Shown: one piece after another, positions 9,664-48,924 of the stretch
How the letters are laid out: every line of letters begins with the position of its first letter
Position numbering within the stretch: position 1 is the stretch's first letter
NCBI GenBank assembly: GCA_017480975.1
Contig: JAFURK010000034.1
Coordinates: 1-58,113 of the forward strand
Length of the DNA: 58,113 nt
Direction: 5' to 3'
Source of the DNA: Bacilli bacterium
GTDB taxonomy: Bacteria > Bacillota_I > Bacilli_A > RF39 > UBA660
Translations under genes and position numbers: made by a program
The notes under the pieces: model-generated
What the model saw: the letters and a program-made list of their open reading frames with translations, nothing else
Database searches by the model: none
Told to the model about the DNA's origin: nothing

Positions 9664-9893
9664 AAATACCTCCTCACACAATTTTCGTTCAATTCCAATA
9701 TGCGATTATAAGACCATAAAGTAAATTTATCGTAAAATAATTTTAAAAATGAAAACTTTTTTCAATAAACAAGAAAAAATATTCTCTACTTTGAAAAATA
9801 CCCATAACTCCCAAAATAATTTTATTTAAAATTACCATAACCCCATTAACATTCATTTTAATAGTCCTTTTCTTTACCTTAGGATATAGCATC

Positions 9894-21405: not shown

Positions 21406-23865
21406 TTACTTATGTATTTTCCTTTTACGAACTTTTTTACTGTCTTCTCCTACTGGTGTTTTAGTTTTTCTTAAATATAAATAACTACCTATTCCTAAAG
21501 CTATAACTAAAACAAATATCCCCCCAACTATATAAGTAGATAATGAACCAGTCGGAATTTCTATAATAGGCATATCATACATAACCAACTTATTATCAGC
21601 TAAAGAATTACCAAATGCATCCACTAATGTACCATCATCTTTTAAAGTAAATAATACTGACTCAGCCGTTGTATAATTTGTAGGAGCAATTTTTTCTACT
21701 AGGTAATAAGTTCCAGCTGGAAGACCAATAATTTTCTTAGGTTCATCAGTTGATACCCAACTAGCAGCAGTTCCACCTTCTAAAACAGCTTCCGCACAAT
21801 CACCTGTATATTGATCAACAACCATTTGTAGTTCATCATTTTCATCGATATACGTTTGACAAATGCTAATAGTAGCACCAGGTAACTCCTTTGCTGTCGT
21901 AATATCCAACTTACTAATGGTAATAAAATTAACATCATTTTCAATAACAATTGCCTTTTCGCCCTTTAAAAATTCTTCATTAGTAATAACTGTATCGCCT
22001 GATTTCACATTCCCTTTTTCATCAATAGAGAAAGATGTAGCAGTAGTAGCTTTAATGTATCCTCTAGGTGGCGTAATTTCAATAATATAATAATCACCTT
22101 TAGGAACTCCCACGAATTCATAAGGCTTATCAATAGAAATCCAACTCATCTCCACTCCATCAATAGTCTTAGCAGGATCACAACTATCTTTTTGGCTTTC
22201 ATAACTAGAAGCTGTACAAATTTTTAAACTAGCACCATTTACTTCCTCATTACCACCAACAGCCTTTTTACTAATTTTAATAGTATTCTTATTATTTACT
22301 TGCGTTACAATTAAATTACCACTAGAAGTAGTGACCTTGGTATAATTACCTTTATTACTACAATACCCATCATCAGCTTTAGTATTTCCAGATATATTAT
22401 AACAAATTTTTTCATAAGTAACTGTTGTACTCGCATCTTCATCCTGATTAGTTGATGAAAACTCACAATTTCCAGAATCATTTAAATCAACAGGATTTCC
22501 CCCCTCTGAACTTTGACATTTATATACATAGTTATCAAAATTACAAAATTCACTATCAACTTTCGTAGGTTCTTCACCATCATTACCAACGTAATAACAA
22601 ACATTACCATTACCATTAGAAATAGAATTCATACGATAAAAGTGATTTACACTCCCACTTAAAACATAACCATCAGGAGCACTTTTTTCAACTAAATAAT
22701 AATCATGTTTAAAGAAATCATCATCATTTTCAGCAACATTAGGACTAGTATAAGTGATACTAGAACTACCACCACTATTATCTGCTAACAACTTTTTGCC
22801 ACTAGCTTCATAATCTTGATATAATTCAAGCGTTGAGCCCTCTAAACTATTACCATATTCATCAACCTTATTAGCAACAATCATATGATTTACAGTATTT
22901 GGTATAAGTAATCTAATAGACTTACCACCAGTACGACTAATAGTTGAAGAATCTACCGTTACTAAATGTTGACTATTAGTACAATCAGTATTATTATATC
23001 TAATAATTGTAGGATATACACTTGTATTTGAAGCGGATACACTAACCGTAACAGTACTACTAGCTTTTAAATCACTACCAGATACCTTTACATAAAAACT
23101 ATACTGTTCACCATCCGTCTTTGGCTCAATCGTAACAGAATCGCTACAATTACTTCCCATTCTAGTACAAATTTGAGCAGTTCCACTTGTCGAAGTAGCT
23201 TTCAAAACATAAGTAACTTGACCATCATACTTAGGTACACCACCATATGTAGCATATAAATTATTCATAACAATCTTATCAGATATATAATAACCATTAG
23301 ATTCATTCAAAGTACCATTTAAAAGACTAAATTGAGGTGCCGGAATACTTGTATTTAATTTTAAATTAGATTCATATTCCACAGCCTGATCATAAACTTG
23401 ACGGACACGATTATTAGTATTATAAAAATTGTATGAAGTACCACCATAAACTCTTTTATTAAAAAATGTATTTAAGACAGCACCAACCTGCTCGTATCTT
23501 TCAGCCCCATCACTTACTAAATCTGACATTTCCTTTGCCATCATTCCAGCCGCAATAGCGCTCTTAGAATCTTTGCTCCAACTACTATCAACCTCATAAT
23601 TTTTAGAACAAATTTCCAATCCCCATTGAACACAATATGCATGCTTATTATTAATTACTTTAACATACTCTATCGCATACCCAGAAGGACAAGTACCTCC
23701 AAATCCAACAAAACCTCCACCATAATTACCATTGGTTAAATTAAAACAAACGTGAGTATCATTTTTATCCCCAGTATAAGTTAATGCTTTAGCCTGCACT
23801 GGGAATAAAAATAATACCAAAACCATTAATAATACCAAACTATATTTCTTAACAAATTGCTTCAT
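21406..23865 (-). CDS. Large cell-surface protein with three SpaA/Cna-B-type (prealbumin-fold) repeats and a C-terminal membrane anchor
   Basis: 819 aa. The signal peptide ends in FPVQAKA. Three repeats carry the signature [12 protein letters not shown] / [12 protein letters not shown] / [12 protein letters not shown]. The C-terminus has IEIPTGS, a hydrophobic helix and a K/R tail. Confidence 0.75.
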
Positions 23866-26718: not shown

Positions 26719-27024
26719 ATGAAAAAATTTAATATGCGAGATGAACAATTTATTTGTGAAAATTGTTATAAAAAAGTTGAAAAATTAAATTATACAGCCC
26801 GTGATCATTGCCCATACTGCCTCTATTCAAAACATGTTGATATTAATCCAGGTGACCGTCAAAATACCTGTCATGGGTTACTAAAACCTATATCTATAGA
26901 AAAATTTAAAAACACTTATAAAATTATTTATAAGTGTGAAAAATGTCATCAACTTCATAAAAATATTATGGCCACTGATGATAATTATGATAAAATAGTA
27001 GAACTATCCACTAGTAATTACTAG
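26719..27024 (+). CDS. RNHCP-domain zinc-ribbon protein
   Basis: 101 aa. CENCYKK ... ARDHCPYCLYSKHVD ... CEKCH matches the RNHCP family pattern. This is the only convincing plus-strand gene in the window. Confidence 0.75.
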   Translation: MKKFNMRDEQFICENCYKKVEKLNYTARDHCPYCLYSKHVDINPGDRQNTCHGLLKPISIEKFKNTYKIIYKCEKCHQLHKNIMATDDNYDKIVELSTSNY

Positions 27025-27585
27025 CTCTAATTCTTTAAAAAAATCATAAACATATGGCATAACCAAAACAAACAAAATTAAAATAAATACAATAACCATC
27101 ATAATTTTAAATTCTTTAGAAAGTTTGAAACCTGAATCAGGTTTCTTTTTTTCTACCATTGTTGGTTCATATTTTACGTTATCTAAATGCTCATTATTTG
27201 AAAAATCTTCATTATTATATAAACTAACATCATTACCAATAGTATCATTAGTATTTGGAATAAACTGTGAATGTGAACCAACATTACCATATTGACTAGT
27301 CCCTACTTCATCATTAACAACATTAAAATTTTGGGAAGTATCATATTGATTAGTATTAAAATTACTACTAAATTGATTTTGATTAATATCATAACCATTA
27401 TTAAAATTAGCAACATTATTAACTAAATCCTGATTAACATTATAATTACTATCTCCATTCTGAAGATTAACTCCCATAGCACTATTAATATTAACTTGTG
27501 GATTCTCAATCGCCGTATTTAAATTACTAGTAGCATGATAAGTATTTTGGGAGTCTGAATTTCTCATTAAATCATTATCATTCAT
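27004..27585 (-). CDS. Tail-anchored, extremely N/Q/S-rich low-complexity protein
   Basis: 193 aa. About 150 aa of N/Q/S/D-rich sequence are followed by one C-terminal TM (FKIMMVIVFILILFVLVMPYV). Confidence 0.55.
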   Translation of the reverse strand: MNDNDLMRNSDSQNTYHATSNLNTAIENPQVNINSAMGVNLQNGDSNYNVNQDLVNNVANFNNGYDINQNQFSSNFNTNQYDTSQNFNVVNDEVGTSQYGNVGSHSQFIPNTNDTIGNDVSLYNNEDFSNNEHLDNVKYEPTMVEKKKPDSGFKLSKEFKIMMVIVFILILFVLVMPYVYDFFKELELVITSG

Positions 27586-27609
27586 AAAAAATCCTTTCTA
27601 CAAATATCT

Positions 27610-28803
27610 TTACTGATTATTAGCAAACATACTAGAAATATCAAATGGTTGCGAACCATCAGAAGTATAAACTCCCATTCCAGTTCCTTGCAAATTACTA
27701 GTATTTTTACTATTTTCAGCTACATTAGTATTTGGTTCAATTCCATTAGATACATTTGATGATTGATTTCCATTTGCCATCCCTACTTGTTGATTGTTAA
27801 TTGCATTTACTCCTTGCTGTTGTACCGCTTGTCCACCAATCATACCATTATCAAGATTAACCCCAACAGAAACACCAGGAGTAACAGACATATTTGAATT
27901 TACAGCCATATTTTGATTAATCATCTGCGAATTTTCCATTCCACTATTAACATTCATATTTGGAACAGGTGCAGAATTCATTGACATATTTGACATTTGT
28001 AATTGTACATTAGGCATTTCCCCTATTCCGTTATTTTCCCCTAAATTATTAGGCATTCCTACGGTAGAACCTACATTTGACATTGAATTTATACTTGACA
28101 TTGGATTTATATTTGGCATAGAATTTGCAGATTGCATAGATACTGAATTTACTTCCGGATTTACAGCAACCATTTGCGGTGTTTCAACCATACCAACCGT
28201 TGCATTTAAATTACTTTGAAAACTTTGATTAACATTCATTTCTGGAATTGGCATCGAATTTACTTCTACATTTGACACTAAAGGTTGTACATTTTGTCCA
28301 TTAGCCATCCCATTTTCTAATCCTAAATTACTTACCATTTCTACATTATTATTTATGTCTTGAACTGGTACAGAAGCAACTTCAATATTTACATTTTGCG
28401 GTTGCATATTAGCCATTTGACTAGTTGAAGTATCAAAAGATGGTGTTACACCTACAACTTCAGAAACTATTTGATTTGCAGCAGCATTAACTACCTGTGG
28501 TTGTTCATTCATAACTTGTGCATTTTGTTCATTAGAAATAGAAACATTATCAACTTGCGGTTGAACAACTTGTTCATTAACAGCAGCAGGACTGGAAATA
28601 GTTTCATTATTTACTTGAGTAACATTAGTACTATCTGGTACTAAATTATCATTATTATTCTCACTAACCTTAGAAGAACTCTTTTTCTTCTTATTATCCT
28701 TATTTTTAGAATCAACTAAAAAACCTATTACACCAATTATTAAAATTATTAACACAACTAAGATATAAACATAATATTCTATCAAAAATTCTACAAAACT
28801 CAT
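27610..28803 (-). CDS. N-terminally anchored, N/Q/M/V/S-rich low-complexity repeat protein
   Basis: 397 aa. It has an N-terminal TM and a basic patch (KKKKSSSK). About 340 aa of degenerate repeats follow, of the type NVxVxSxPVPxMNVN / MSNxGxxxGM. Confidence 0.6.
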   Translation of the reverse strand: MSFVEFLIEYYVYILVVLIILIIGVIGFLVDSKNKDNKKKKSSSKVSENNNDNLVPDSTNVTQVNNETISSPAAVNEQVVQPQVDNVSISNEQNAQVMNEQPQVVNAAANQIVSEVVGVTPSFDTSTSQMANMQPQNVNIEVASVPVQDINNNVEMVSNLGLENGMANGQNVQPLVSNVEVNSMPIPEMNVNQSFQSNLNATVGMVETPQMVAVNPEVNSVSMQSANSMPNINPMSSINSMSNVGSTVGMPNNLGENNGIGEMPNVQLQMSNMSMNSAPVPNMNVNSGMENSQMINQNMAVNSNMSVTPGVSVGVNLDNGMIGGQAVQQQGVNAINNQQVGMANGNQSSNVSNGIEPNTNVAENSKNTSNLQGTGMGVYTSDGSQPFDISSMFANNQ

Positions 28804-36981: not shown

Positions 36982-37449
36982 TTACTCCTTTCCTTTATAA
37001 ATAATAGGCTTTATTATCATACCTTCCATCAACATATTAAGTACTGATATAACAACTGCAATAACAAACGGTATTATAAACCCTTGTATCTGAAAATTAT
37101 CTCCCAATATAAAACTAGTAATATATAATACTAATACATTGATAATAGGATAAAACAATCCCATCGAAAGAGCTGTAATAGGCAACGTTAAATAAAATAA
37201 TACCGGCTTAATAGTTTGATTTAGAATATATATTATAACTGCTGCTAATAAAGCATATAATCCATAATACTGATTATTAATATAAAAAGAATCCTTAAAC
37301 ATACAAGACACTGCTATTAAAACAATTGCATAACCTACCATATATAATAACCATTCAAAAATTTTATTATTTATCAATCTTTTAAAATGATTCTTCTCTT
37401 TGTTATTATCAGATTCATCAATTATAATAAGTTTTTTCAAACAAATCAT
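36982..37449 (-). CDS. Holin family 4 / DUF360 (YvlD-like) membrane protein
   Basis: 155 aa with 4 TM. GLFYPIINVLVLYITSFILGDNFQIQGF fits the DUF360 pattern. Its stop is 2 nt before the lgt start. Confidence 0.6.
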   Translation of the reverse strand: MICLKKLIIIDESDNNKEKNHFKRLINNKIFEWLLYMVGYAIVLIAVSCMFKDSFYINNQYYGLYALLAAVIIYILNQTIKPVLFYLTLPITALSMGLFYPIINVLVLYITSFILGDNFQIQGFIIPFVIAVVISVLNMLMEGMIIKPIIYKGKE

Positions 37450-37560: not shown

Positions 37561-37590
37561 TAAAAAAAATCTTCATAAATTTGAAGACTT
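37561..37590 (-). terminator. Rho-independent terminator closing the Tad-like operon
   Basis: Minus strand reads AGUCUUCA-AAUUUA-UGAAGAUU followed by UUUUUUU, 17 nt after the last gene's stop. Confidence 0.7.
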
Positions 37591-37606
37591 ATCAACAAAA
37601 AAATAA

Positions 37607-38584
37607 TTAATCAATACTTCTATACAATCCTAATTTATTTAAAATGGGAAATAAAATCTCCAAATTATCTAACCTATCATTCAAAGGAGGTAACACTCCA
37701 AAAAAATTAATCCCTGTTTCAAAACTCAATTGTTTAACATCTTTATTACTCAATAAGGAACGATTTAAAATTACTTTTTGATCAGCAATTTTATTAAAAC
37801 AACGATTGTCTAACATCACCGCCTTATTAATCATTAAAGTTGAGGATTCCATTAAAAAAACAACATCAGAACAAACACTATAAACGGTAGCAAGATCCAA
37901 ATCATTTAAATCAATTAAAAGAACATTAACGCCTTTATATTTTAATAACAAATTATTTAATTCATTAGCTTTACAACTAATCATATCTTTATCATTAAAA
38001 AACATAAAATCTCGTTTATTAATTTCTATTGCTACAGTATAATAATTTTTTGATAACTGTTTCTTTAACATATAAATTAAACTAGTAGCTCCCGCATGAC
38101 TAGTAAAATTTTTTATTCCAATAATTTTAACTCCAGAATCGACTACATCGAAATTTTTATCAACACCGCCAACTTCAGGTGTCATCACCATAGAATACTC
38201 ATCAATTTTTTGTAAATGAGCTACATCCTTGTAACTATTAGGATTATCATATAAATATTTTAATTCATCTTCAGTTCGAGCAAAATTATAAATTCCCATA
38301 CTAATTAATTTAGAAATATAAGAATCAGAATTAACAACATTATTATCATTAGGTAAAAGTAATATTATTTTACTAACATCTAAACCTATAGATAAAGCCT
38401 TTAAATTATTAACATTAGTATAATCTTTAATTGATGTAATATCTAAAAACATTCTATTAAAGAAAAAATTAGAAAAAGACTGCACAATCTCATCAACAGT
38501 AAACTCTCCCGTAATAGACTTAATAACATCAATATCTAAATTAACAAATTTTTTACCATTCAAATTACTAACAATGACATTCAC
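37607..38584 (-). CDS. TadZ/CpaE-like protein: pseudo-receiver N-domain plus MinD/ParA-like domain with a degenerate Walker A
   Basis: 325 aa. The C-terminal half follows the MinD/ParA template: VKIIGIKNFTSHAGATSLIYML ... VLLIDLND ... DVVFLMESS ... VILNRS ... GVLPP. The P-loop reads SHAGATS instead of KGGxGKT. Confidence 0.55.
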   Translation of the reverse strand: MNVIVSNLNGKKFVNLDIDVIKSITGEFTVDEIVQSFSNFFFNRMFLDITSIKDYTNVNNLKALSIGLDVSKIILLLPNDNNVVNSDSYISKLISMGIYNFARTEDELKYLYDNPNSYKDVAHLQKIDEYSMVMTPEVGGVDKNFDVVDSGVKIIGIKNFTSHAGATSLIYMLKKQLSKNYYTVAIEINKRDFMFFNDKDMISCKANELNNLLLKYKGVNVLLIDLNDLDLATVYSVCSDVVFLMESSTLMINKAVMLDNRCFNKIADQKVILNRSLLSNKDVKQLSFETGINFFGVLPPLNDRLDNLEILFPILNKLGLYRSID

Positions 38585-38599
38585 TATTCTGCCTCCACT

Positions 38600-39001
38600 C
38601 TATGCGTTATTTATAATTTTTGTCTCACCACCAATAGGTATCGCAATACCTACATTAAACAAAGGAAAATCCATAACAATATAAGCAAAAACTTTATAAT
38701 AAGAACCACTATTCTTTGAAACTATACAAACACCATGCTCAGTTAAATTACCACCTTGAGAATTGCAATGTTCTAATACTTTAGGATACCTATCCTTCGG
38801 ATAAGAATATGCTACCTCATATAAATAAGCATCAATTTCCTCAACAGTATACCCTTTATTATGCTCTATGTAATTGACAACACCATTCTTCACTCTAAAT
38901 GTTTTTGCAAAACTAATTGAAACAGTCATAAAACAAATAAATATAACAAAAAAAGTCAAAATAATAGTTATAATAAAAGAACCACCAAAAGCATCTTTCA
39001 T
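38600..39001 (-). CDS. TadE-like prepilin / minor pilin candidate (paralog 2)
   Basis: 133 aa. It begins MKDAFG-GSFIITIILTFFVIFICFMTV, a short charged leader ending in Gly followed by a hydrophobic helix. It is a paralog of 39034-39459, with shared blocks FRVKNGV, YYKV..Y.V.DFP.FN and IPI.GET. Confidence 0.55.
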   Translation of the reverse strand: MKDAFGGSFIITIILTFFVIFICFMTVSISFAKTFRVKNGVVNYIEHNKGYTVEEIDAYLYEVAYSYPKDRYPKVLEHCNSQGGNLTEHGVCIVSKNSGSYYKVFAYIVMDFPLFNVGIAIPIGGETKIINNA

Positions 39002-39033
39002 CTTAAATCACCACCAAATAATAATAGAACATG

Positions 39034-39459
39034 TTAATAAGGTAAAACAATAACCTCTGTCTCGCCAGAAATTGGGATAACTGGATTATAATTAAAGAAC
39101 GGAAAATCAATAACTAAATAAAGAATAACTTTATAATATACTTCATTAGAACTAACTTCATTTCTAATAATACAAGCACCATTTTCAGAATAAAATCCAG
39201 ATTTAGAATCGCAATTACTTTTAGCACTAGGATATTGACTAGCCGGATAATTATAAGAAAAATTGCTTAAATAATTGTTAATATCATCCTCACTATCACT
39301 ACTACTATCATACTGCATTTGTTCCAAAATATCAATTACGCCATTCTTTACTCTAAAAACTCTCGCATAACTGGCAGCAATAGTCATGAAAGATACAAAA
39401 GCAACAATAAAAATTATAATAAGTTTAAACATAAAAGTACTTCCAAATGCATCTCTCAT
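39034..39459 (-). CDS. TadE-like prepilin / minor pilin candidate (paralog 1)
   Basis: The start is moved to the ATG at 39459 (GGTGAT SD), giving 141 aa. It begins MRDAFG-STFMFKLIIIFIVAFVSFMTI. Confidence 0.55.
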   Translation of the reverse strand: MRDAFGSTFMFKLIIIFIVAFVSFMTIAASYARVFRVKNGVIDILEQMQYDSSSDSEDDINNYLSNFSYNYPASQYPSAKSNCDSKSGFYSENGACIIRNEVSSNEVYYKVILYLVIDFPFFNYNPVIPISGETEVIVLPY

Positions 39460-39564
39460 CACTATCACCAACCTCAAAAAAAATAATTACAATCCTATTA
39501 ATAGATATTCCTAAATAAGACATACAAAAATAATTCTAACTAACCAATCCTATTATTTGCTTCT

Positions 39565-39741
39565 TTATAAATTTTGATTAGTACCATCAACATATTCAAT
39601 ATTATAACTAGTAAGATTGCTCCATTGATTTTCAACATATTTTTGAGCAAGTGGAACTAAAAATCTTACAACTCCAGCTATCAAAGCAATTGCCAAAATG
39701 GTAACTACTACCATACTTAATTCACCTGTAGATTCTTTCAC
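39565..39741 (-). CDS. Flp-like major pilin candidate (58 aa), not in the ORF track
   Basis: Minus strand reads GGAGG, 8 nt, then a GTG start. It encodes MKESTGELSMVVVTILAIALIAGVVRFLVPLAQKYVENQWSNLTSYNIEYVDGTNQNL, ending in TAA at 39565-39567. The short polar leader ends in Gly and is followed by a hydrophobic helix of about 20 aa. Its position directly after the platform genes is where flp sits in Tad loci. Confidence 0.6.
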   Translation of the reverse strand: MKESTGELSMVVVTILAIALIAGVVRFLVPLAQKYVENQWSNLTSYNIEYVDGTNQNL

Positions 39742-39778
39742 CTAAATCACCTCCTTTAATTGCAAATACTTCTATAAA

Positions 39779-40573
39779 TTAAATACTAGAAAAAGACATT
39801 AACATAGAAACTAAAAGTAATATCATACCCCCGCCACCAGTAACAACTAACATTACCATAGTCATACTTTCCATTTTACTTAACCTATTTTTATATTTTT
39901 GTTCCCTAGATTTTTGTTGTAAACTAGAAACACTTTTAGAAAATGATATTAACTGAGTATGTTTTTTTTCTTGCTCCCCTAAACTTAAACGATAAAGTAA
40001 TCTCATCATCCTAACAGAATCTCTAACCGGATACATAGTTGCAAAATCCATATAAGGTTGAACTGAAGAATCACCAGCTTCAATCTTAGCAACCATAGCT
40101 TTCAATCCAGGCTTAAAAACTTCCGGAGCATCTTCAATACTTCTAGCAAGCGCAACTGGAACAGTATAATGTTGAATCAAAACTTCTAACCCTTTTAAAT
40201 AATAAGGAAGCAAAGAATCAACTTCATTCAAATGATTTTTATAATAAGTTTTCAAATTAAAATATTGTAATTTAAAAACTAAAAAACCAATAAGCAAACT
40301 AATTATTATATTTAAAAATGATAAACTAGAAATAAAGAAAAACATACATAAAATACTAACTAAAAAACCATTACGTACTCTTTTCATAAAAACAGCATCA
40401 ACATCATAAACTGCATCACCGTATTTAGATAAAAGTAAAAATTCATAATCACTTTCCTTTAACAAATTAAATAAGTCTTTATTATCTGCAACAAATTTTC
40501 CTGTACTAATTTTACCGCTGTAAAATAGTACTCCAAAAATAATTACACCTACTAATAATATCTCTATATACAT
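39779..40573 (-). CDS. tadC: Tad pilus platform protein, GspF/T2SSF-like (TadC-like)
   Basis: 264 aa. The topology (N-terminal TM, cytoplasmic helical domain, C-terminal TMs) fits T2SSF. Its ATG shares one base with the stop of the preceding paralogous gene. Confidence 0.65.
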   Translation of the reverse strand: MYIEILLVGVIIFGVLFYSGKISTGKFVADNKDLFNLLKESDYEFLLLSKYGDAVYDVDAVFMKRVRNGFLVSILCMFFFISSLSFLNIIISLLIGFLVFKLQYFNLKTYYKNHLNEVDSLLPYYLKGLEVLIQHYTVPVALARSIEDAPEVFKPGLKAMVAKIEAGDSSVQPYMDFATMYPVRDSVRMMRLLYRLSLGEQEKKHTQLISFSKSVSSLQQKSREQKYKNRLSKMESMTMVMLVVTGGGGMILLLVSMLMSFSSI

Positions 40574-41472
40574 TACTCAGCACCTACATTCTCATTATAA
40601 TATTTTTCCCCTTTAAGAAGAAAAAATGTATTTACAAGCACTAAAATATGTAACAAAACAACAATAATCGGATTATCTAACATAGCAATATAGCTATCAA
40701 CTCCTAGCAATAACTGAATAAGCATAACAATTCCATATAATGCAACACCAAATAAAAGAAATTGTTTGTGAAATTCAGCCCTATCCATTCTATCTCGATA
40801 AACTCCTTCTACTAATACGTCAATATCATTTAACATATTATCAAAAGTTTCCTCTGTATCCTTGGCACCTTCTTTGGTAACTTGTAAAAATAATTGATGC
40901 ATATTCTTTACCATAAAGAAAGGATATTTAGTATTCATATAAACTATCGAATCATTAACCTCCCCCTTCTCATATGATAAAGCTATCATAGTTTTAACAT
41001 CAGTTAAAACAGGATCTTCTAAAACACCAGATTCAACTACGCCTTCTAATGATTTTATAAATGCCTGAGTACTAGCAAATTCCATTATCGTATTTGTAAC
41101 ATAAACTTGAATTTGTTCAAAAATATATTCACTATATTGCCTCTTTGAACGCAAATAAGTAATGTATGGAATAAATGATATAGCAATAATTGCATAAACA
41201 ATTGAAACAAGCAAACTATAGAAATACATATAACCAACAACCCCTGCAATGCCAGCAAACAAAACTAACTGCGTAATATATTGTCTTGGAGTATAATCCA
41301 TTCCTAACTCTTTAATTTTCTTTCGCATTTCTTTATAAGAATAAGGTGCATATTTTCCATAAATATTATTAGCTTGTTCAGTAATAAACTTATAAACACC
41401 ATTTCCAGTACTTGAACGATAAGTAACAATAAATATTAATACAACACCAACTAGTAATACTGCTATTAACAC
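40573..41472 (-). CDS. tadB: Tad pilus platform protein, GspF/T2SSF-like (TadB-like)
   Basis: 299 aa with a GTG start (GAGGTGA SD). The topology matches its downstream partner, and it lies immediately after the secretion ATPase. Confidence 0.65.
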   Translation of the reverse strand: MLIAVLLVGVVLIFIVTYRSSTGNGVYKFITEQANNIYGKYAPYSYKEMRKKIKELGMDYTPRQYITQLVLFAGIAGVVGYMYFYSLLVSIVYAIIAISFIPYITYLRSKRQYSEYIFEQIQVYVTNTIMEFASTQAFIKSLEGVVESGVLEDPVLTDVKTMIALSYEKGEVNDSIVYMNTKYPFFMVKNMHQLFLQVTKEGAKDTEETFDNMLNDIDVLVEGVYRDRMDRAEFHKQFLLFGVALYGIVMLIQLLLGVDSYIAMLDNPIIVVLLHILVLVNTFFLLKGEKYYNENVGAE

Positions 41473-41476
41473 ATAA

Positions 41477-42808
41477 TCACCTCATTCCACTCTGACTATC
41501 ATTAAGACCATTATACAACATTTTTTCAGAATTAACAATATTAATATCTGAAAAATTTGAACTTAAATTAGAATTGCTTTGCGGATAAACACTTGAATTT
41601 TGAGAATAAATTTGTGGATTTTGAGAATAAATACCAGTATTTACACCAGCTAACTGTGAATAATTAGTATTAATGTTTTGAGAAGAAACTTGTGGATTCA
41701 CCCCAATATTTACCATATTGTTATTATTCATATTAGGGTTTACCTCTTTAAATTGTTCCTTAACTAATATATCAGCTTGCATAGAAACACCTTGACTTTC
41801 CAAATAACCTAATAAATACTTAGTTGGATTATTTATGGTGACATTTCCATCTGGAGTTTTTTTATACAAAATCTTATAATCTGGTTGATTATGGTCATCA
41901 ACAAAAAATTCAACAACCTCAGCAACTTCTCTTTTAAATCTCTGTAATTCAGGACTATAATATCCTTTTATATGCACACCTAATTGCACATATCTATGAA
42001 TACTTCTTAAAAATTGATCCATATCTATACTTGATTCAAGTAAACTATACAAACGACTAGGAATAGATTCAGCCTTATCAGCATGTATAGTTGAAAGTAT
42101 ATTATGACCAGAAGAAATAGAATCACGAACGGCCATAACTGCTTCAGCACTTCTAACCTCAGATAATAGTATCCACCTAGGATTTTGTCTCATACAAGTA
42201 ACCAAAACATCTGCATAACTTGCAATATTATTAGTTTTCATAGCTACAATATCCCGTTCAGGAAATATCTTATCCAAATGAAGTTCTAAAGTATCCTCAA
42301 TAGTAATAATCTTTTCATTATACTTAGTATGTGCTGCCATATACTTTACAAACTCAGTCTTACCACTACCAGTTTCTCCACTAACTAAAATATTACAATG
42401 GCCTTCTACACATTTTAACAGAAAATCATGAATATCTAACCTAATATAATCTTCTTGAATTATTTTATCTTTCTCTAATCTAATTTTAGCAGGAGTCTTA
42501 CGAATTAAAACTGCAATTCCATTACGAGCAATAGATTCATGAACAAAGTTCATACGCAATTCAGCACTTTCAGCATCCAAAAATGGATTGGCCATATTAA
42601 ATGACTTTCCCATCGAATTAGCACATTGAAAGGCCATTTTTTCCATAAAAGTATTATTTAAAGCAGGATTTTCAACTCTAAAAACTCCTTTAGACAATGT
42701 CTTTAACCAAACTTGTCCTCCATTACTATAGGAAATATCTGTTACATCATCATTATTCAAATATTCTTGAATTGGTCCAAAATCAACTTGTGTAAATTCA
42801 TTTTTCAT
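41477..42808 (-). CDS. tadA: CpaF/TadA-family type II/IV secretion ATPase with a C-terminal N/Q/S-rich extension
   Basis: 443 aa. Motifs: Walker A VSGETGSGKTE, Asp box ITIEDTLEL, Walker B RQNPRWILLSEVR and His box ILSTIHA. The last roughly 87 aa are low complexity (IYSQNPQIYSQNSSVYPQSNSN). Confidence 0.85.
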   Translation of the reverse strand: MKNEFTQVDFGPIQEYLNNDDVTDISYSNGGQVWLKTLSKGVFRVENPALNNTFMEKMAFQCANSMGKSFNMANPFLDAESAELRMNFVHESIARNGIAVLIRKTPAKIRLEKDKIIQEDYIRLDIHDFLLKCVEGHCNILVSGETGSGKTEFVKYMAAHTKYNEKIITIEDTLELHLDKIFPERDIVAMKTNNIASYADVLVTCMRQNPRWILLSEVRSAEAVMAVRDSISSGHNILSTIHADKAESIPSRLYSLLESSIDMDQFLRSIHRYVQLGVHIKGYYSPELQRFKREVAEVVEFFVDDHNQPDYKILYKKTPDGNVTINNPTKYLLGYLESQGVSMQADILVKEQFKEVNPNMNNNNMVNIGVNPQVSSQNINTNYSQLAGVNTGIYSQNPQIYSQNSSVYPQSNSNLSSNFSDINIVNSEKMLYNGLNDSQSGMR

Positions 42809-42817
42809 CTATATCAC

Positions 42818-43651
42818 CTATTGATTATTAGTTTCATTATTACTTACTTCATCAGAAGTACTAGATAAAATTTCATCAACTGATACCATTTCAGTTTTTT
42901 CATTAATAAAATCTTGAATATCCTTACTACTAACAAAAACAGCATCCTCAGCAGTTACTTCTTGAGTATTAGGAACCAAAATTAATTCAACATCATAGCT
43001 ACCAGCTAAATATATAGCTTTTCTAAATAACAAATGCATATCTTCAGGCAAAGCAAATAACATATATGCCGGAGTTCTAGCTTCTTGTGAATTTTCAAAA
43101 ACATGACGTCCAGATGAATCCTTAACATCCAAAATTTTTATATTACTTAAAAATTTACCAAACATAATAGTATTTTCATCACTTCTAGCTTTAAAATAAA
43201 TATTAATATAATCATCTGGCATCATACTGTTAGCATATGTACTATCCATATTAACCTTATAACTAATAACAGTCTCATTCTCAGCTACATCTAGAAAAGA
43301 AGAATTCGGTAATGTTGCAGACTCAACAACTAAATCAGTATAAAATATACTACCTTCAGCTATTACTGTATTGTAATCAGGATATTTCCCAATAATGTCT
43401 TCTCCACTTCTATAATAACTTCCTACCAAAAATGAAGTTGGAACATTCATATAAGAAATCATATCAGAAGTAATCTCAGTTCTAGGTTGAATAGTCTGAT
43501 TAGCATAAGGAACTTTAGTTAAAGCAACTTTTTTATTAATAGTAGAACTATAACCAAAATATAAAATTAAAATACACAAAAGAACCCCTAAGATGGTAAC
43601 AGTATTTTTATTACCAACAAATTTTTTTATAGAACTAGATAAATTACTCAT
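42818..43651 (-). CDS. cpaB: CpaB/RcpC-like pilus assembly protein (N-terminal TM plus SAF domain)
   Basis: 277 aa. It has a TM (VTILGVLLCILILYF). The SAF-like segment is KVPYANQTIQPRTEITSDMISYMNVP ... IIGKYPDYNTVIAEGSIFYTDLV. Confidence 0.6.
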   Translation of the reverse strand: MSNLSSSIKKFVGNKNTVTILGVLLCILILYFGYSSTINKKVALTKVPYANQTIQPRTEITSDMISYMNVPTSFLVGSYYRSGEDIIGKYPDYNTVIAEGSIFYTDLVVESATLPNSSFLDVAENETVISYKVNMDSTYANSMMPDDYINIYFKARSDENTIMFGKFLSNIKILDVKDSSGRHVFENSQEARTPAYMLFALPEDMHLLFRKAIYLAGSYDVELILVPNTQEVTAEDAVFVSSKDIQDFINEKTEMVSVDEILSSTSDEVSNNETNNQ

Positions 43652-43681
43652 TTAAATCACCCTTTCATACTTTTATTAATC

Positions 43682-44164
43682 TTAATTCCTAAGTTCTAAA
43701 ATTCCGCTAAGATTATTAACTAAATTAAACGAAGATTCATCACCACTAGTCGTCAAAACATAATCTTGAGTCTTACCAGTAATGACTACTGTAGCCTTTG
43801 GTGGCATCTCAATGATGTCATAAAATTGAATATTATATTCACTAACATCTCCCATTACACTAGCAGCAAAACGTCTAGTAAAATTTTCAACAAATTTTTG
43901 TTCAATAATTTTTAAATCATCATCGCCACATGCTTCTACAGTCTCAATAGTACCTTCATTGTTGAAAACCTCAGCTTTACCTTCTGAATCTCCAATTCTA
44001 TAACATACTAAATCAACCGACTCTAACATTGCAGCTTCCATTGCCTCTTTCAATACATAGTACTCAGATTCATTGTTAACTGTAATATCCTGAAACATAA
44101 CAATCAATATAAAACCTAACATCCCAAATAATATAAAACCTAAACTTAAATAAGCATATTTCAT
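43682..44164 (-). CDS. N-terminally anchored protein of unknown family (possible pseudopilin or assembly factor)
   Basis: 160 aa. It begins MKYAYLSLG-FILFGMLGFILIVMF and is followed by a soluble domain. I recognise no motif. Confidence 0.45.
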   Translation of the reverse strand: MKYAYLSLGFILFGMLGFILIVMFQDITVNNESEYYVLKEAMEAAMLESVDLVCYRIGDSEGKAEVFNNEGTIETVEACGDDDLKIIEQKFVENFTRRFAASVMGDVSEYNIQFYDIIEMPPKATVVITGKTQDYVLTTSGDESSFNLVNNLSGILELRN

Positions 44165-44182
44165 TTAAAATCACCACCACCA

Positions 44183-46765
44183 TTATTTAGTTGCATCACA
44201 AGCTGTAGAAAAAGTTCCAACTGGACAATAACTATTATCTATCCCTAATTTAGTCTTAAAATATCCAGAGAACTTACTAGTTATAAATTCATTACTACCT
44301 GTTTTAGTAATTGTTTGCATACTAGCATAACTAGAATCATTTGAATAATCATTCAATTCATTTATTCCTAACTTATCTCCAGAACTACCACCTTTGGCAA
44401 TTGTTACTTCATATAAAGGTTGACCACTATAATAAGCATCATAAGTACTCTTTAATCTAGTTTGATTATTTCCATCCGCCCACCATACTTGCCAATTTAC
44501 AGGAATAGAAGATGTATTTTTAAATGGTTTTTCAACATCAATAGAACGATAATTATAAGTTAATGCAATTTTATCTCCATCTCCATCGCCATCTTCATCT
44601 TTATAATAACTGTCATTAACATTAACATCACATGTTCCATTTAATTTCCAATCAAATTCAGAATACTCAACTAACAAACTAGGATTAATATTTTCAGCCA
44701 AATTAAACGGAAAATCTTCATCATAAACCCATTTAAAATCAACATAAAACCTTTGACCAGTCGCAACAGATTTCTCTTTCAAATCCTGTGTTGCATCCTC
44801 AGCCTTTTTTATATATTCAGCTTTACCAGCTTCATTACCTGTGATATAGATATAAGAATCAGCTAAACTATACGAATACTTATTTGTTGTATATTTACCA
44901 ACATTATTTGAACCATCACGAATAATATCCCTCTCTGGCGAAGTTTCATCCTTTTTCCAACTGCCATCAACCTCATAACCAGGATTATTTACATCACAGC
45001 TAGAAATATCATTACCATTGCAAGATTTATATTTTATATTTGAAATTGGATCACCATCTTCGACACCATCTTTAATCTTTTTCTGAACTTCTAAATCAAT
45101 CACCTCAAAAGCTGCTTCAGATATTCCAATAAATCCAGAACTACTTCCATCACTCTTAGTATATTTTGCTTTCGTATTATCATCTAAATAAACCGTTTGA
45201 GTAGAACACGAACCATTAGAATATACAGTTGTTTCATACTTATAATAAGGTATACCACTTTTAGTTTGTAAAGCATTTACCCAAGTAACCGTATTGTTAT
45301 AAAAAGTACCTTCTAACCCAAAACCTTTTCCAGCATAGATACCAGTACTATTATCAAAACCAGTTAACTCACCAAAATTAAATTCTGCCTCTTGTATCAA
45401 TAATACATTAATAGAAACTTTAATAGTATCAGAACCAGCACAAGTATTAAGTCTATTTTGTAATTTTACTTCACCAGATACATCTATTTTATTGTTTTTT
45501 CCTCCTATACATTGAAAATACTTACCATTAACAGGTGAACCACTACCACTTGATCCAGCATTATTTTCACAAACTACACTATTTTCTTTAACAGTACTTT
45601 TTGTTTCTCCACCAGTAAGTTGATCATAATAATCACATTCTCTTTGAACAATATTTTCTTTTAATTCTATTGTTAAACTTCCCGTAACAGATAACCAACT
45701 ACCAAATGCATAAAAAACACTACTACCATATCTATTAGATTTTACAAAACAATCATCAGTTACTTCACTAGCTTTCAAAGCATAGAGTACATCTTTCCAA
45801 CTTCTTCCAGTATCATAACTGTTTTGATAACTTCCAAGACTTCCTCGACTAGAAACTATGTAAGAGCCACTACTATTAAACACTTTATAAGTTCTACTAT
45901 TACCATCTTTACAAGTACCAGCACTAATTTTTTCACGACTAGTATTCCGGTATGCAATAGTTTCAGGAGCAATAGTAACAGAATCACTCATCCCACCAAT
46001 AGTTAACAAGAAATTTCCAACTTCATTTTCAGTGCCACAGCTTTTTTCATTAACCCAACAATTTTTTGTATATACACCTAATTCAGTCGAAAAATATGTA
46101 CCACCATATTCATCACTATGGCGATCAGAATAAAAACCGGCCTTATCATGCAAAACAATTCTAAAATGAATTTCTTCTTCACTTCCTAATTCATTAATTA
46201 ACTCATCTAAAGTAATACTAGCTCTAAACCCAACATTTTTGTAAGTACACCAAGCACCTGAAGCCCCATTAGTACAAGAATTCTTCCACTCGCTTTCTCT
46301 TACACCATCATAAGCTTTTTTACAATTTTCTTGAGCTTCAGTCGTACCATTACCATCGCTATCAGCTCTAGAACCAAAACAACGAGATTCAGACATATTT
46401 CTATCTGATTGTGTAACTCTCAGACGAACACTTTTACCAGTTACCTCATTTTCTTTGTAAGTTTTATCCCACTTTCCTACATAAGCTACCACATAAGTAT
46501 CAAAATTACCTCTTCCTCCATTAATACTACCAATATTATGTTGATGTTCAATAAAAGCATAACCATCAAAACTCAAGTTATTACCACTAATATTAAAACT
46601 TTCAACAGAATAAATAACTTTATGAGAAACATTATTTCCCCCAACAGACTCAATACACTCATCGTATGACGTACCTTCTCTACAATTATCTTGTCCTAAA
46701 ACAACATTAGGAAAAACAAACATAACCATAAACAAAAAACATATAAATTTTATCTTTTTTCTCAT
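44183..46765 (-). CDS. Large secreted Cys-containing protein of unknown family (candidate pilus-associated adhesin or substrate)
   Basis: 860 aa. The signal peptide is MRKKIKFICFLFMVMFVFPNVVLG-QD. Many Cys residues are spread through the sequence, with an acidic DEDGDGDGD patch and no C-terminal anchor. Its ATG overlaps the upstream stop by 4 nt. Confidence 0.6.
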   Translation of the reverse strand: MRKKIKFICFLFMVMFVFPNVVLGQDNCREGTSYDECIESVGGNNVSHKVIYSVESFNISGNNLSFDGYAFIEHQHNIGSINGGRGNFDTYVVAYVGKWDKTYKENEVTGKSVRLRVTQSDRNMSESRCFGSRADSDGNGTTEAQENCKKAYDGVRESEWKNSCTNGASGAWCTYKNVGFRASITLDELINELGSEEEIHFRIVLHDKAGFYSDRHSDEYGGTYFSTELGVYTKNCWVNEKSCGTENEVGNFLLTIGGMSDSVTIAPETIAYRNTSREKISAGTCKDGNSRTYKVFNSSGSYIVSSRGSLGSYQNSYDTGRSWKDVLYALKASEVTDDCFVKSNRYGSSVFYAFGSWLSVTGSLTIELKENIVQRECDYYDQLTGGETKSTVKENSVVCENNAGSSGSGSPVNGKYFQCIGGKNNKIDVSGEVKLQNRLNTCAGSDTIKVSINVLLIQEAEFNFGELTGFDNSTGIYAGKGFGLEGTFYNNTVTWVNALQTKSGIPYYKYETTVYSNGSCSTQTVYLDDNTKAKYTKSDGSSSGFIGISEAAFEVIDLEVQKKIKDGVEDGDPISNIKYKSCNGNDISSCDVNNPGYEVDGSWKKDETSPERDIIRDGSNNVGKYTTNKYSYSLADSYIYITGNEAGKAEYIKKAEDATQDLKEKSVATGQRFYVDFKWVYDEDFPFNLAENINPSLLVEYSEFDWKLNGTCDVNVNDSYYKDEDGDGDGDKIALTYNYRSIDVEKPFKNTSSIPVNWQVWWADGNNQTRLKSTYDAYYSGQPLYEVTIAKGGSSGDKLGINELNDYSNDSSYASMQTITKTGSNEFITSKFSGYFKTKLGIDNSYCPVGTFSTACDATK

Positions 46766-47406
46766 TCTAACACTCTTCTCTTTCTCATTCTAAGAAAAGC
46801 GACTATAATTACAACTAAAAGAACAACTCCTCCAAGAATAAATAAATAATAATTACTTAAAAAATCAACAACTTTATTAATAAAACTTCCATTATCATCA
46901 TTATCATTATCGTCATTTAAATAAGAATTAACTACTTTATAAAAATACTCATCATTAATTTCTGCTTGATAATTAGAATCACATACATCTAAATTATATT
47001 CTTCCAATTCTTTACATTCTTTTCTTAAAGAATATACATTAAATTTAGGAAGATTAAAAGAAAACTTTTTCAATAAAATATCTCGACACCTAGTAGAATA
47101 AACCTTAAGCACATTGTTTCCCGATGAAAGTATCAGCTCTAATACACCATTTTCAATCTGATTATAATAATATTCATTTCCATCACCATCAACTATATAT
47201 AATTGTTCATTTAACCCCCGCACATAAACATAATACAAATTATATATCCCTTCTTCTCCTACAACTACTTCATAATCATATTCAACATAACTAGCTAATT
47301 CCTTTAAATTATCAATTTCTTCTTTATCACACATAAGCGCATCTACACTTAAATTAAATCCAAATAAAGAAAAGCAAAAAACAAACATCAACTTTAATAT
47401 TTTCAT
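46762..47406 (-). CDS. Secreted, C-terminally membrane-anchored protein of unknown family; first gene of the Tad-like operon
   Basis: 214 aa. It has a signal peptide, an ectodomain of about 150 aa with 5 Cys, and a DDNDNDDN linker. A TM (LFILGGVVLLVVIIVAF) and an RMRKRR tail follow. Confidence 0.55.
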   Translation of the reverse strand: MKILKLMFVFCFSLFGFNLSVDALMCDKEEIDNLKELASYVEYDYEVVVGEEGIYNLYYVYVRGLNEQLYIVDGDGNEYYYNQIENGVLELILSSGNNVLKVYSTRCRDILLKKFSFNLPKFNVYSLRKECKELEEYNLDVCDSNYQAEINDEYFYKVVNSYLNDDNDNDDNGSFINKVVDFLSNYYLFILGGVVLLVVIIVAFLRMRKRRVLE

Positions 47407-47476
47407 ATCAGCCTCCTACTATTATCATAATAATACCATTTTTTCTAGAAAAATAAAAGACTTTTACTCTATAAAA

Positions 47477-47515
47477 AGAAAAAAATTGTAACTTTTGTGC
47501 CAAAAAATTACAATT
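47477..47515 (-). terminator. Strong rho-independent terminator after obg, insulating the Tad-like operon
   Basis: Minus strand reads AAUUGUAAUUUUUUG-GCA-CAAAAGUUACAAUU (about 14-bp stem) followed by UUUUUUU. Confidence 0.8.
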
Positions 47516-47552: not shown

Positions 47553-48821
47553 CTATTTTGTATACTCAAATTCATAATCAAGAATTCTAACAATATCCCC
47601 TTCTTGTATTCCCATTTTTTCTAATTCATCATCAATTCCCATTTTTCTAAGTTTATGCGAAAATCTAAATAATGCTTCTTCGGTATTAAAATTAGTCATA
47701 TTAAATAACTTTTCTACTTGTTCTCCTTTTATCACATAAACTTCTTTATCCTTAGTAATAGTAAAAGGTTTCTCCTTTTTAAATTTATATAAAACATGAC
47801 TTTCTTGCATTTCTGGTTCAAATAATATTTGCGTTTCGGTATTCATAACCAATTCTTTTAGTTTATCAATAACAATATCTAATCCTTGATTATTAATTGC
47901 ACTAATCTCATAAATAGGAACATCAACCTTCTTTTTAAATTCTTCTAAATTATTAATAGACTCTTCCATATCCATTTTATTAGCAATTATTATCTCCGGT
48001 TTATTCAATAATTTATTACTGAATTTTCCTAATTCTTCTCTAATGGTTACATAATCATCGTAAGGATTTCTACCTTCTATTCCTGACATATCAATAACAT
48101 GAGCAATTATCTTAGTTCTTTCGACATGTTTCAAAAACTTATGGCCTAATCCTAAACCATCTGATGCGCCTTCAATTAATCCAGGCAAATCTGCTACCGT
48201 ATAAGAATAATCTTTCATACTAACAACACCTAAATTAGGAGATAAAGTTGTAAAATGATAACTAGCAATCTTTGGATTTGCATTAGTAATCATTGATAAA
48301 ATAGTACTCTTACCAACACTTGGAAGTCCTACTAAACCAACATCTGCAAGCATTCTAAGCTCTACTTTTATTTTTCTATTTTCACCAGGTTCTCCTCTTT
48401 CGCAATAAGAAGGACAAGGATTACTGCGTGTAGCCAAAGTAACATTACCTCTGCCACCACGTCCACCATAAGAAACAATAATTTCCTCACCATTCTTAGT
48501 CAAATCACCAATAACAACACCAGTCTCACTATCTCTAACAGTTGTCCCAACCGGAACTTTAACCACGGTATCAATAGCATTCTTACCATTCTTATTTTTA
48601 CCTTCACCATTCATACCAGGATTACCTTTTACATGTTTTTGATATCTTAAATCAATTAAAGTTCTAAGTCCTTCATCAGCTTTAAAAATGATATCTCCAC
48701 CTTTACCACCATTACCACCAAAAGGACCACCCATTGCAATATATTTTTCTCTTCTAAATGCCATACAGCCATCCCCACCACGACCGGCTGTAACTTCAAC
48801 TATAACCTCATCTACAAACAT
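47553..48821 (-). CDS. obg: GTPase Obg/CgtA
   Basis: The start is moved to the ATG at 48821 (MFVDEV...). It has the glycine-rich Obg fold (GGDGCMAFRREK, GGPFGGNGGKGG), G1 GLPSVGKST, and a C-terminal OCT-like domain. Confidence 0.95.
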   Translation of the reverse strand: MFVDEVIVEVTAGRGGDGCMAFRREKYIAMGGPFGGNGGKGGDIIFKADEGLRTLIDLRYQKHVKGNPGMNGEGKNKNGKNAIDTVVKVPVGTTVRDSETGVVIGDLTKNGEEIIVSYGGRGGRGNVTLATRSNPCPSYCERGEPGENRKIKVELRMLADVGLVGLPSVGKSTILSMITNANPKIASYHFTTLSPNLGVVSMKDYSYTVADLPGLIEGASDGLGLGHKFLKHVERTKIIAHVIDMSGIEGRNPYDDYVTIREELGKFSNKLLNKPEIIIANKMDMEESINNLEEFKKKVDVPIYEISAINNQGLDIVIDKLKELVMNTETQILFEPEMQESHVLYKFKKEKPFTITKDKEVYVIKGEQVEKLFNMTNFNTEEALFRFSHKLRKMGIDDELEKMGIQEGDIVRILDYEFEYTK

Positions 48822-48924
48822 ATCTACACTTCCTCTCACTTGTTAGTATTATACACTATTCCATAAAAAAAAAAAAGAAAAAAAATTAATTAAATACATA
48901 CAGTTATATAATTAAAATTTTTAT

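Follow-up and report, generated by a model that had tools for sequence, protein, structure and literature searches.

The stretch of DNA analysed here, hereafter the window, is an entire contig of 58,113 bp (G+C about 28%) from an NCBI metagenome-assembled genome labelled "Bacilli bacterium". Between positions 37607 and 47406 its minus strand carries eleven co-oriented and tightly packed open reading frames, which we number G1 to G11 in the direction of transcription, and sequence homology supports a Tad-like machine core for this operon. The locus had been proposed from its sequence as a Tad/Flp-like (type IVc) pilus operon, and the sizes and order of the eleven genes in this original prediction were confirmed. 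The predicted overlaps were also found, of 4 nt between G1 and G2 and of 1 nt between G6 and G7. The predicted gap range of 4-37 nt applies to the other junctions except that from G8 to G9, which measures 87 nt from the TTG start of G9 or 105 nt from its conserved ATG at 39459. An attenuator in this longer gap was considered and rejected, as the gap holds no significant structure (z = +1.1). Both terminators that had been described as bracketing the block are genuine elements of hairpin and U-run, judged by their folding energies and z-scores. The upstream one (47477-47515, minus strand) has a 14-bp AT-rich stem followed by a U-run (-10.1 kcal/mol, z = -3.35, with 1 of 200 shuffles equally good) and is likely the terminator of obg; an AGGAGG ribosome-binding site for G1 follows it at about 47415. 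The downstream one (37561-37590, minus strand), with a 9-bp stem and U8 (-7.7 kcal/mol, z = -1.9), is likely the terminator of the operon itself. A generic scan for G+C-rich terminators detected neither hairpin because both are too AT-rich. The look of the locus supports the single compact transcription unit that had been predicted.

All eleven proteins were run against Pfam and NCBIfam, and the only matches to pass the thresholds were T2SSE for G5 and DUF5411 for G3. The Pfam models T2SSF, TadE, Flp_Fap and CpaE gave no match among the eleven. G5 (41477-42808, 443 amino acids, MBQ8681864.1) has a Walker A motif GETGSGKT and matches T2SSE with E = 7e-26. Its best PDB match is CpaF (71 bits), followed by an archaeal GspE-like ATPase (62), VirB11 (59) and FlaI (57), which agrees with the CpaF/TadA-like ATPase that was expected here. 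In NCBIfam the VirB11 model scores highest (116 bits), ahead of the TadA family (98), TrbB (89), FlaI (84) and ComGA (75), and all of these are far under their cut-offs (250 bits for the VirB11 model TIGR02788 and 300 bits for ComGA). Given these mixed family scores, G5 taken alone can be assigned to a CpaF/VirB11/archaeal clade and to nothing finer. By its sequence, it is a secretion ATPase of the CpaF/TadA-VirB11 clade. The last 85 residues or so (41477-41730) form a variable low-complexity tail rich in N, Q and S. Close homologues span 421-548 amino acids and align over only the first 80-100% of G5, and canonical CpaF aligns only to about residues 9-257. An archaeal-type pilus was among the readings considered and was rejected.

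The two GspF-like platform proteins of the original prediction were recovered in G6 (40573-41472, 299 amino acids) and G7 (39779-40573, 264 amino acids) by way of intermediates from Bacillus plasmids, the Pfam T2SSF model having missed both outright. On their own G6 and G7 have no Pfam, NCBIfam or PDB match, and PDB profile searches with clade alignments of G6, G7 and G11 returned nothing. The G6 family is small, as clustering at 50% identity gives 255 clusters for it in a set of 1.84 billion proteins, and Pfam detects no families in its remote full-length relatives. A phmmer search links G6 to a protein on a Priestia koreensis plasmid (1.3e-13), which RefSeq names "type II secretion system F family" and which reaches 24.2 bits with Pfam T2SSF (cut-off 25.2). 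Extended profiles, G6x and G7x, were built from clade alignments enlarged by the Priestia protein and its homologue on pHT73. They were compared by hhalign with canonical TadB and TadC references drawn from three proteobacterial Tad loci. G6x matches canonical TadB (91%, E = 1e-6) and TadB and TadC together (92%, E = 5e-7), G7x matches TadB and TadC together (74%, E = 3e-5), and the two extended profiles match each other (94%, E = 1e-7). The positive control of TadB against TadC gave 97% (E = 1e-11), and the negative control of G6x and G7x against CpaE gave 0.1%. Profiles of G6 and G7 from the window clade only reach just 2-8% to TadB/TadC, and their alignment with each other is confined to the N-terminal transmembrane helix; the paralogy is visible only after the Bacillus intermediates are added. 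Two single-domain platform paralogues are a hallmark of Tad systems. The extended-profile comparison finds two single-T2SSF-domain paralogues at this locus, and on this ground G6 (TadB-like, with a single T2SSF-like domain) and G7 (TadC-like) are a paralogous platform pair. The AlphaFold2 model of G6 is all-helical with 13 helices (predicted local distance difference test score, pLDDT, 92.7; predicted template modelling score 0.81).

G4 (42818-43651, 277 amino acids) consists of an N-terminal transmembrane helix and a CpaB/RcpC-like (SAF) protein. It matches the CpaB model TIGR03177 below threshold (E = 4e-5, 22.9 bits against a cut-off of 71) and RcpC likewise below cut-off (E = 0.013), retrieves the SAF/RcpC protein of the Priestia plasmid by phmmer (2e-22), and aligns with canonical CpaB by hhalign (21-46%, E = 1e-3 to 2e-4). 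On these sequence comparisons G4 is probably the CpaB-like SAF protein that had been predicted. G11 (37607-38584, 325 amino acids, IJ509_03000) had been called a TadZ-like pseudo-ATPase. TadZ proteins are composed of a receiver-like domain and an atypical ATPase domain. The AlphaFold2 model of G11 (pLDDT 83.5) contains an N-terminal domain of alternating beta and alpha elements (residues 1-127), a disordered linker and a C-terminal domain whose best Foldseek matches are SIMIBI nucleoside triphosphatases, namely the HypB-ATPase type, BcsQ, ParA, FlhG and MinD (E = 4e-5 to 3e-3). The P-loop is degenerate (HAGATS, with no Lys). The part of the earlier call that stands is the predicted ParA/MinD-type C-terminal fold with its dead P-loop; sequence similarity to CpaE/TadZ is the part that falls. 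As modelled, G11 fits a TadZ-like protein in architecture only.

The candidate for the major pilin is G8 (39565-39741, 58 amino acids). It is Flp-sized and has a six-residue leader MKESTG, followed by E-L-S-M and a hydrophobic helix. Homologues are present in all 17 related loci described below, with the N-terminus MKE[AS][TS]GE[LF]SM, then a stretch of some 20 hydrophobic residues and finally a short tail. G8 matches the archaeal Pilin_N weakly (E = 0.025) and shows no match to canonical Flp (hhalign 0.6% with Ralstonia Flp). G9 (39034-39477) has 147 amino acids from its TTG start and about 141 from the conserved ATG at 39459, and G10 (38600-39001, 133 amino acids) is its paralogue at 42% identity; some relatives have one copy only. 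Their homologues start with M[RK][DE]AFG[GS] and continue with a hydrophobic helix, after which comes a small domain that contains two conserved Cys. The leaders of G8 and of G9/G10 are alike in having six residues and a terminal Gly, which suggests a common processing step of class-III type. The 58-amino-acid frame, predicted to be pilin-like, is a hydrophobic mini-protein of Flp size that lacks the Flp motif, and the two supposed TadE-like prepilins are indeed paralogues with pilin-like N-termini, their TadE similarity having found no support.

Short-leader pilin-like proteins in a monoderm host raise the question whether the operon encodes a competence-type (Com-like) pilus for DNA uptake. 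DNA-uptake systems are often kept in reduced genomes, and the ComGA model does give G5 its 75 bits. We consider this reading very improbable. ComGA ranks below the VirB11, TadA and FlaI models and is far from its cut-off, and the locus has two single-domain platform proteins and not one two-domain ComGB. There is no ComGC-type FTLxE motif and no comEA or comEC nearby, and CpaB, DUF5411 and a large adhesin are all foreign to com operons.

One of our clearest departures from the original prediction concerns the three lead genes, which had been taken for unrecognisable orphans. G3 (43682-44164, 160 amino acids) is composed of an N-terminal transmembrane helix and the Pfam domain DUF5411 (E = 6.5e-35), aligns with the DUF5411 proteins of plasmids (hhalign 81%), and always follows the big secreted protein. 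That protein, G2 (44183-46765, 860 amino acids), has its own signal peptide, a hypervariable body and a conserved C-terminal module, which reads YRSIDxxNPFP...NW and then SYC..G.FS..CD. G2 has no Pfam or PDB match, and a search for homologous proteins returned G2 alone. A profile of its C-terminal module matches the C-termini of a Priestia Ig-like protein (3e-6), of pLS20-type Tie proteins (...INADDPFPNGAPKGW...; 1.5e-5) and of a Paraclostridium thioester-domain protein (3e-5), these E-values being computed for a set of 100 proteins. The PFP..W module is thus common to G2 and other surface proteins, and we regard G2 as a candidate adhesin. G1 (46762-47406, 214 amino acids) begins with a signal peptide and continues with an extracellular domain of some 160 amino acids, in which four Cys are invariant, then a C-terminal transmembrane helix and a short basic tail. 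It has no family match apart from a weak one to the C-terminal anchor-like NF041738 (E = 2e-4). The basic cytoplasmic tail (46762-46830) ends in L-E or L-D in all homologues but one and could be a recognition tag. The lead genes are not orphans, because related cassettes on Bacillus plasmids, and likewise conjugation operons of the pLS20 type, are preceded by such a block, composed of a surface protein, a large secreted protein and a DUF5411 protein.

A scan of species-representative genomes found 17 related loci, 16 of them with the full block, in uncultured gut "Bacilli", "Erysipelotrichaceae" and mislabelled metagenome-assembled genomes from Hadza humans, goat and other sources. Their ATPases are 72-91% identical to G5. 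The order from G1 to G11 is kept in 16/16 loci holding the full block, and an arrangement by chance can therefore be dismissed; the survey of gene neighbourhoods that had been proposed as a check bears the architecture out. The core proteins are 55-91% identical among these relatives, and G1 and G2 only 22-43% and 17-37%, respectively. A fast-evolving G1 and G2 beside a slow core is a pattern typical of exposed binding proteins. The flanking genes vary between genomes, and obg adjoins the operon only in loci L001 and L008. In public metagenomes, the matches to G5 at E <= 1e-5 comprise over 7,500 clusters of ATPases built at 90% identity, of which the best 120 are all 71-94% identical. The system is therefore abundant in gut samples, which points to a common surface organelle of an uncultured lineage of gut Bacilli.

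Variation among the relatives also gives hints on the modules of the operon. The CpaB-like gene, single in the window, is found as a tandem duplicate in L002, L006, L007, L009, L010 and L012 (for example at L006:8213-9085 and 9136-9981). In L008 (2086-9089) the lead block is doubled, with an extra pair of a large secreted protein and a DUF5411 protein before the set of G1, G2 and G3, and this duplication suggests that adhesin and DUF5411 form a modular cassette. A distant lineage (L029:8209-11774, from JGI metagenome 3300049647) has CpaB-like, G6-like, G7-like and G11-like genes in consecutive order, the G11-like gene immediately after the G7-like gene. This run adjoins ribosomal-protein genes and has no ATPase or pilin genes in between. 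Its G6-like protein is 26% identical to G6, and the G11-like protein (E = 3e-57) is better conserved than either the G6-like or the G7-like one.

The nearest ATPases on plasmids (33-35% identity) are encoded by "CpaF/VirB11 family" genes of Bacillus, Paraclostridium and Enterococcus plasmids. Over the pLS20-type and Priestia plasmid ATPases together the identity to G5 is 32-35% (174 bits). The neighbourhoods of these genes are shaped like the window locus. They start with a large surface protein (thioester-domain, isopeptide or Rhs-like), continue with an N-terminally membrane-anchored protein of about 125 amino acids, the ATPase and membrane proteins of about 270 and 245 amino acids, and end with another protein of about 120 amino acids with an N-terminal transmembrane helix and then transmembrane proteins of about 47 amino acids. 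A reduced version is formed by genes 34-41 of pLS20, namely the adhesin Tie (34), 36, the "putative VirB11" (37) and 38-41, of which 36 and 38-41 are listed as unknown and 34 and 37 are not (PMC8557374). The corresponding block of pAW63 comprises coding sequences 26-19 (PMC1196294). Tie has been identified experimentally as an adhesin that is needed for efficient transfer mostly in liquid and has no known wall anchor (PMC8092201). By hhalign, G3 matches the family of pLS20 p36 (93%, E = 2.5e-7), G7 matches p39 (93-97%; G7x 97%, E = 5e-10), G6x matches p38 (83%), and G8 weakly matches p41, a transmembrane protein of 47 amino acids (30%, E = 6e-4). The cross-controls of the pLS20 profiles remained below 3%. 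p40 is a DUF4320 protein (95%), to which G9/G10 reach only 2%. The window has these constituents of the pLS20 module: a p37-type ATPase flanked by proteins of p36, p38 and p39 types, and upstream a large protein with a PFP..GW C-terminus.

Full versions of the block are found on the Priestia koreensis plasmid NZ_CP061869 (L024) and on the conjugative B. thuringiensis plasmid pHT73. There the order is SLH protein, a protein of about 850-990 amino acids (Ig-like in Priestia), DUF5411, a CpaB-like (SAF) protein, a ParA-like protein, the ATPase (CpaF), two platform proteins (T2SSF), a small transmembrane protein and DUF4320. A tblastn search with the Priestia T2SSF-family protein found 363 plasmid records, 357 of which are from Bacillus. 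A separate observation is that a gene annotated as "TrbC/VirB2 family protein" follows the Tad-like block on Enterococcus pZB18 (L020:12458-12736) and stands in the same position on B. mycoides p97 (L022:10599-10877) and a Peribacillus plasmid (L023:10535-10807). Their presence is at variance with the frequent claim that pilin homologues are missing from conjugation systems of Gram-positive bacteria.

The plasmid relatives raise the question whether the operon is the remnant of a conjugation system, that is a type IV secretion system (T4SS) left from an integrated conjugative element, in which G5 would be VirB11 as annotated on pLS20 and pAW63. VirB11 is the best NCBIfam score of G5, and its closest plasmid relatives lie in conjugation operons beside VirD4-like and pLS20_p028 genes. 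G5 nevertheless reaches only 116 of the 250 bits required by TIGR02788 and has no VirB genes nearby. VirD4, VirB4, VirB6 and relaxase are absent from the window and from the flanks of the 17 related loci, as is VirB8 from their vicinity. The neighbours of loci of the window type are housekeeping genes (obg, lgt, trxB and a glycosyltransferase), the operon is a stable chromosomal one across many species, and the partners of the ATPase are TadB/TadC-, CpaB- and pilin-like proteins and not VirB proteins. We see scarcely any chance that the locus is such a remnant.

We favour, with some reservation, the reading that the operon encodes a highly divergent monoderm Tad-like filament, or a stub of one, which belongs to a Bacillota-specific DUF5411 type and presents the hypervariable G2 together with G1. 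In such a machine G5 would drive the polymerisation of G8 from the platform of G6 and G7, while G4 and G11 might scaffold or position the apparatus. G9 and G10, and perhaps G3, may serve as minor or priming subunits, and G3 and/or the minor pilins would connect the conserved C-terminus of G2 to the filament. Surfaces of the host, of particles or of cells would then be bound by the fast-evolving body of G2 and by the membrane-anchored G1. If a prepilin peptidase is required, it would have to be encoded elsewhere in the genome. A more specific version can be put forward tentatively and we regard it as doubtful: an adhesin-presenting pilus in which the PFP..W module of G2 and Tie-type proteins docks via DUF5411 and minor pilins onto a filament of subunits of about 50 amino acids, the plasmid block being the missing organelle of mating-pair formation.

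Several observations weigh against a Tad-like filament. A filament has yet to be observed, and the organism has not been cultured. The NCBIfam scores do not separate G5 from VirB11, whose models score about like the TadA models. G6 and G7 are linked to TadB and TadC solely via two intermediate sequences, and a Foldseek search of PDB with the confident G6 model gave no match (best E = 1.2); PDB may contain only isolated cytoplasmic T2SSF domains. For G11, no sequence or profile comparison gave a similarity, whether to CpaE/TadZ, to the ParA-like protein of Priestia or to anything else, and the solved TadZ is absent from the top 50 fold matches of its model. G8 is without the Flp motif G/XXXXEY, having no EY. 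It also lacks E5, and its conserved Gly is preceded by a residue other than the usual basic one, so that processing by a peptidase is only a putative step. G9 and G10 have no Pfam match to TadE (PF07811; hhalign 0.1%) and no convincing match to DUF4320 (hhalign 6%). The lack of a peptidase gene, already pointed out in the original prediction, extends to the relatives: scans of the 58-kb window, and of the stretches up to about 10 kb from the locus in the 17 relatives, found no A24 prepilin-peptidase motif. The assignment of the pilins rests on size, topology and position, because there is no Flp motif, E5, TadE, convincing DUF4320 or nearby peptidase to support it. Finally, the proposed docking of G2 draws on synteny and a common motif only.

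The same parts could also form a short pseudopilus or secretion device, comparable to the type II secretion system or the Com pseudopilus. Its Tad-like core would serve as a conduit across the thick wall, or as a piston within it, and in this way expose or release G2 (and G1) after export by Sec. This would be compatible with the signal peptide of G2 itself, with the missing wall anchor of pLS20 Tie, with the absence of reported pili in Gram-positive conjugation systems and with the label "secretion-related" that Miller et al. gave to related operons (PMC9523054). On the other hand, monoderms need no secretion step across a second membrane, and true Tad pili typically have a major subunit of Flp size and a homologue of CpaB. 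We judge a secretion device to be unlikely, although the present evidence does not distinguish a short from a long filament.

It is also questionable whether the lead genes belong to the machine at all. G1 to G3 might be functionally independent surface proteins that merely lie upstream, with G4 to G11 working alone. Sec signals are present in G1 and G2, which makes a special export route unnecessary, their evolutionary rate is quite unlike that of the core, and a direct interaction is a matter of inference. Yet G1 and G2 overlap by 4 nt, spacers of 18-30 nt lead on to the core, and the generic scan, which also missed both flanking hairpins, reported no terminator inside the operon. Moreover, the cassette of big protein, DUF5411 and ATPase recurs in very distant Bacillota elements, the C-terminal module is common to plasmid surface proteins, and adhesin and DUF5411 are duplicated inside the operon in L008. 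Taken together, an independent role for the lead genes seems to us improbable, and we retain them as part of the Tad-like filament system.

Around the operon, the upstream neighbour is obg (47553-48839), and downstream follow a PF04020 holin-like gene, lgt and trxB. The PF04020 gene (36982-37449), of the four-transmembrane "phage holin" superfamily IV, lies between the operon terminator and lgt, and L001 and L012 have the same holin and lgt neighbours somewhat farther downstream of the operon. Elsewhere in the window, 21406-23865 encodes a secreted protein of 819 amino acids with a signal peptide ending in ...VQAKA, which has no match to the G2 C-terminal profile. At 27004-28803 there are adjacent open reading frames of 193 and 397 amino acids rich in N/Q/S low complexity, one of them with an N-terminal transmembrane helix. 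Over the whole window the minus strand carries all but one of the open reading frames of at least 110 amino acids, and the GC skew, with values from -0.23 to -0.65, is strongly negative throughout. The contig seemingly lies entirely on one replichore with an extreme gene-strand bias.

The original prediction saw in this locus a candidate for an undescribed variant system. We agree in so far as it represents a divergent and uncharacterised subtype, but it is not wholly undescribed, since relatives in Clostridia have already been flagged computationally (PMC9523054). The Tad/type IVc kind is already known, and none of the flagged relatives has been characterised. Some plasmid members already carry the RefSeq labels DUF5411, SAF, T2SSF or CpaF/VirB11. 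The literature we searched contained no paper that connects Tad or type IV pili with the block of pLS20, pAW63 or pHT73. Recent reviews describe Gram-positive T4SSs as lacking VirB11 and pili (PMC12857230; PMC8557374), and how Tie is retained on the pLS20 cell is an open question in the literature (PMC8092201). The homology reported here would reassign pLS20 genes 36-41, and their equivalents in pAW63, pXO2 and pZB18, to a Tad-derived module, and thereby offers an explanation that is directly testable in the genetically tractable B. subtilis. If the adhesin-presenting pilus proves true, the "VirB11" of pLS20, pAW63/pXO2 and pHT73 and its neighbours would be the long-missing mating-pair organelle of Gram-positive bacteria, and the window operon a chromosomal version for host adhesion in abundant uncultured gut Bacilli. 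Attachment to hosts or particles is a candidate role for the hypervariable tip or partner proteins. The standard hidden Markov models (Pfam T2SSF, TadE, Flp and CpaE) miss almost the entire machine, and surveys of the TXSScan type probably undercount the DUF5411-type subtype.

Compared with known Tad/Flp systems, such as Cpa of Caulobacter, Tad of Aggregatibacter and Tad of the monoderm Bifidobacterium breve, the window shares a CpaF-clade ATPase, a TadB/TadC-like pair of paralogues, a probable CpaB-like protein, an accessory protein of predicted ParA/MinD fold, the lack of a separate retraction ATPase, and a very small hydrophobic candidate for the major subunit beside larger pilin-like proteins. 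It differs from them in that all components other than the ATPase are under the Tad thresholds of Pfam and NCBIfam, and in having no Flp motif, no TadE signature and no TadV in or near the locus. Its TadZ-like gene comes last, with a dead P-loop and a sequence unlike CpaE, and there is an extra conserved lead block of anchored protein, hypervariable secreted protein and DUF5411.

Among gut Clostridia, Miller et al. (2022) predicted "secretion-related" operons of 8-9 genes in Roseburia, Ruminococcus and Eubacterium, with CpaF, a PilC/GspF-like protein, DUF5411, a large invasion/adhesin-like protein and otherwise unrecognisable genes (PMC9523054). Unlike the window these are from Clostridia and not Bacilli, they are computational predictions, and we liken them to the window by their description only (PMC9523054). 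A Tad-like cluster of the gut Clostridia TANB77 was recognised by structural homology and contains CpaB, TadZ/CpaE, TadA and several unrecognisable pilin-like genes (PMC11680825). It resembles the window as a Tad-like cluster of uncultured gut Bacillota with unrecognisable pilin-like genes, and differs in its fused TadC-TadB, its separate TadZ and CpaE, and the fact that no DUF5411 or lead adhesin block is reported (PMC11680825).

The blocks of pLS20 (34-41), pAW63/pXO2, E. faecium pZB18 and a Paraclostridium plasmid have the same gene shapes in nearly the same order, an ATPase at 32-35% identity, and the PFP..GW C-terminal module that is found in both G2 and Tie. In contrast to the window they have no CpaB-like or TadZ-like genes, carry DUF4320 (p40) in place of G9/G10, have the small pilin and the protein of about 120 amino acids in swapped order, and are embedded in T4SS operons (VirD4, VirB4, VirB6). 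The bodies of their adhesins carry thioester or isopeptide domains, which G2 does not. The clusters of pHT73 and Priestia are located on conjugative plasmids and differ in a ParA-like gene (AAA_31, with an intact GK[RT]) between CpaB and the ATPase, whose sequence is unrelated to G11, in SLH domains of the lead protein where G1 has a C-terminal transmembrane anchor, and in DUF4320 as the last pilin-like gene. They share with the window the full architecture, from the surface-anchored protein through the N-terminally membrane-anchored protein of about 130 amino acids, and their counterparts of G4, G6 and G7 are found by plain phmmer.

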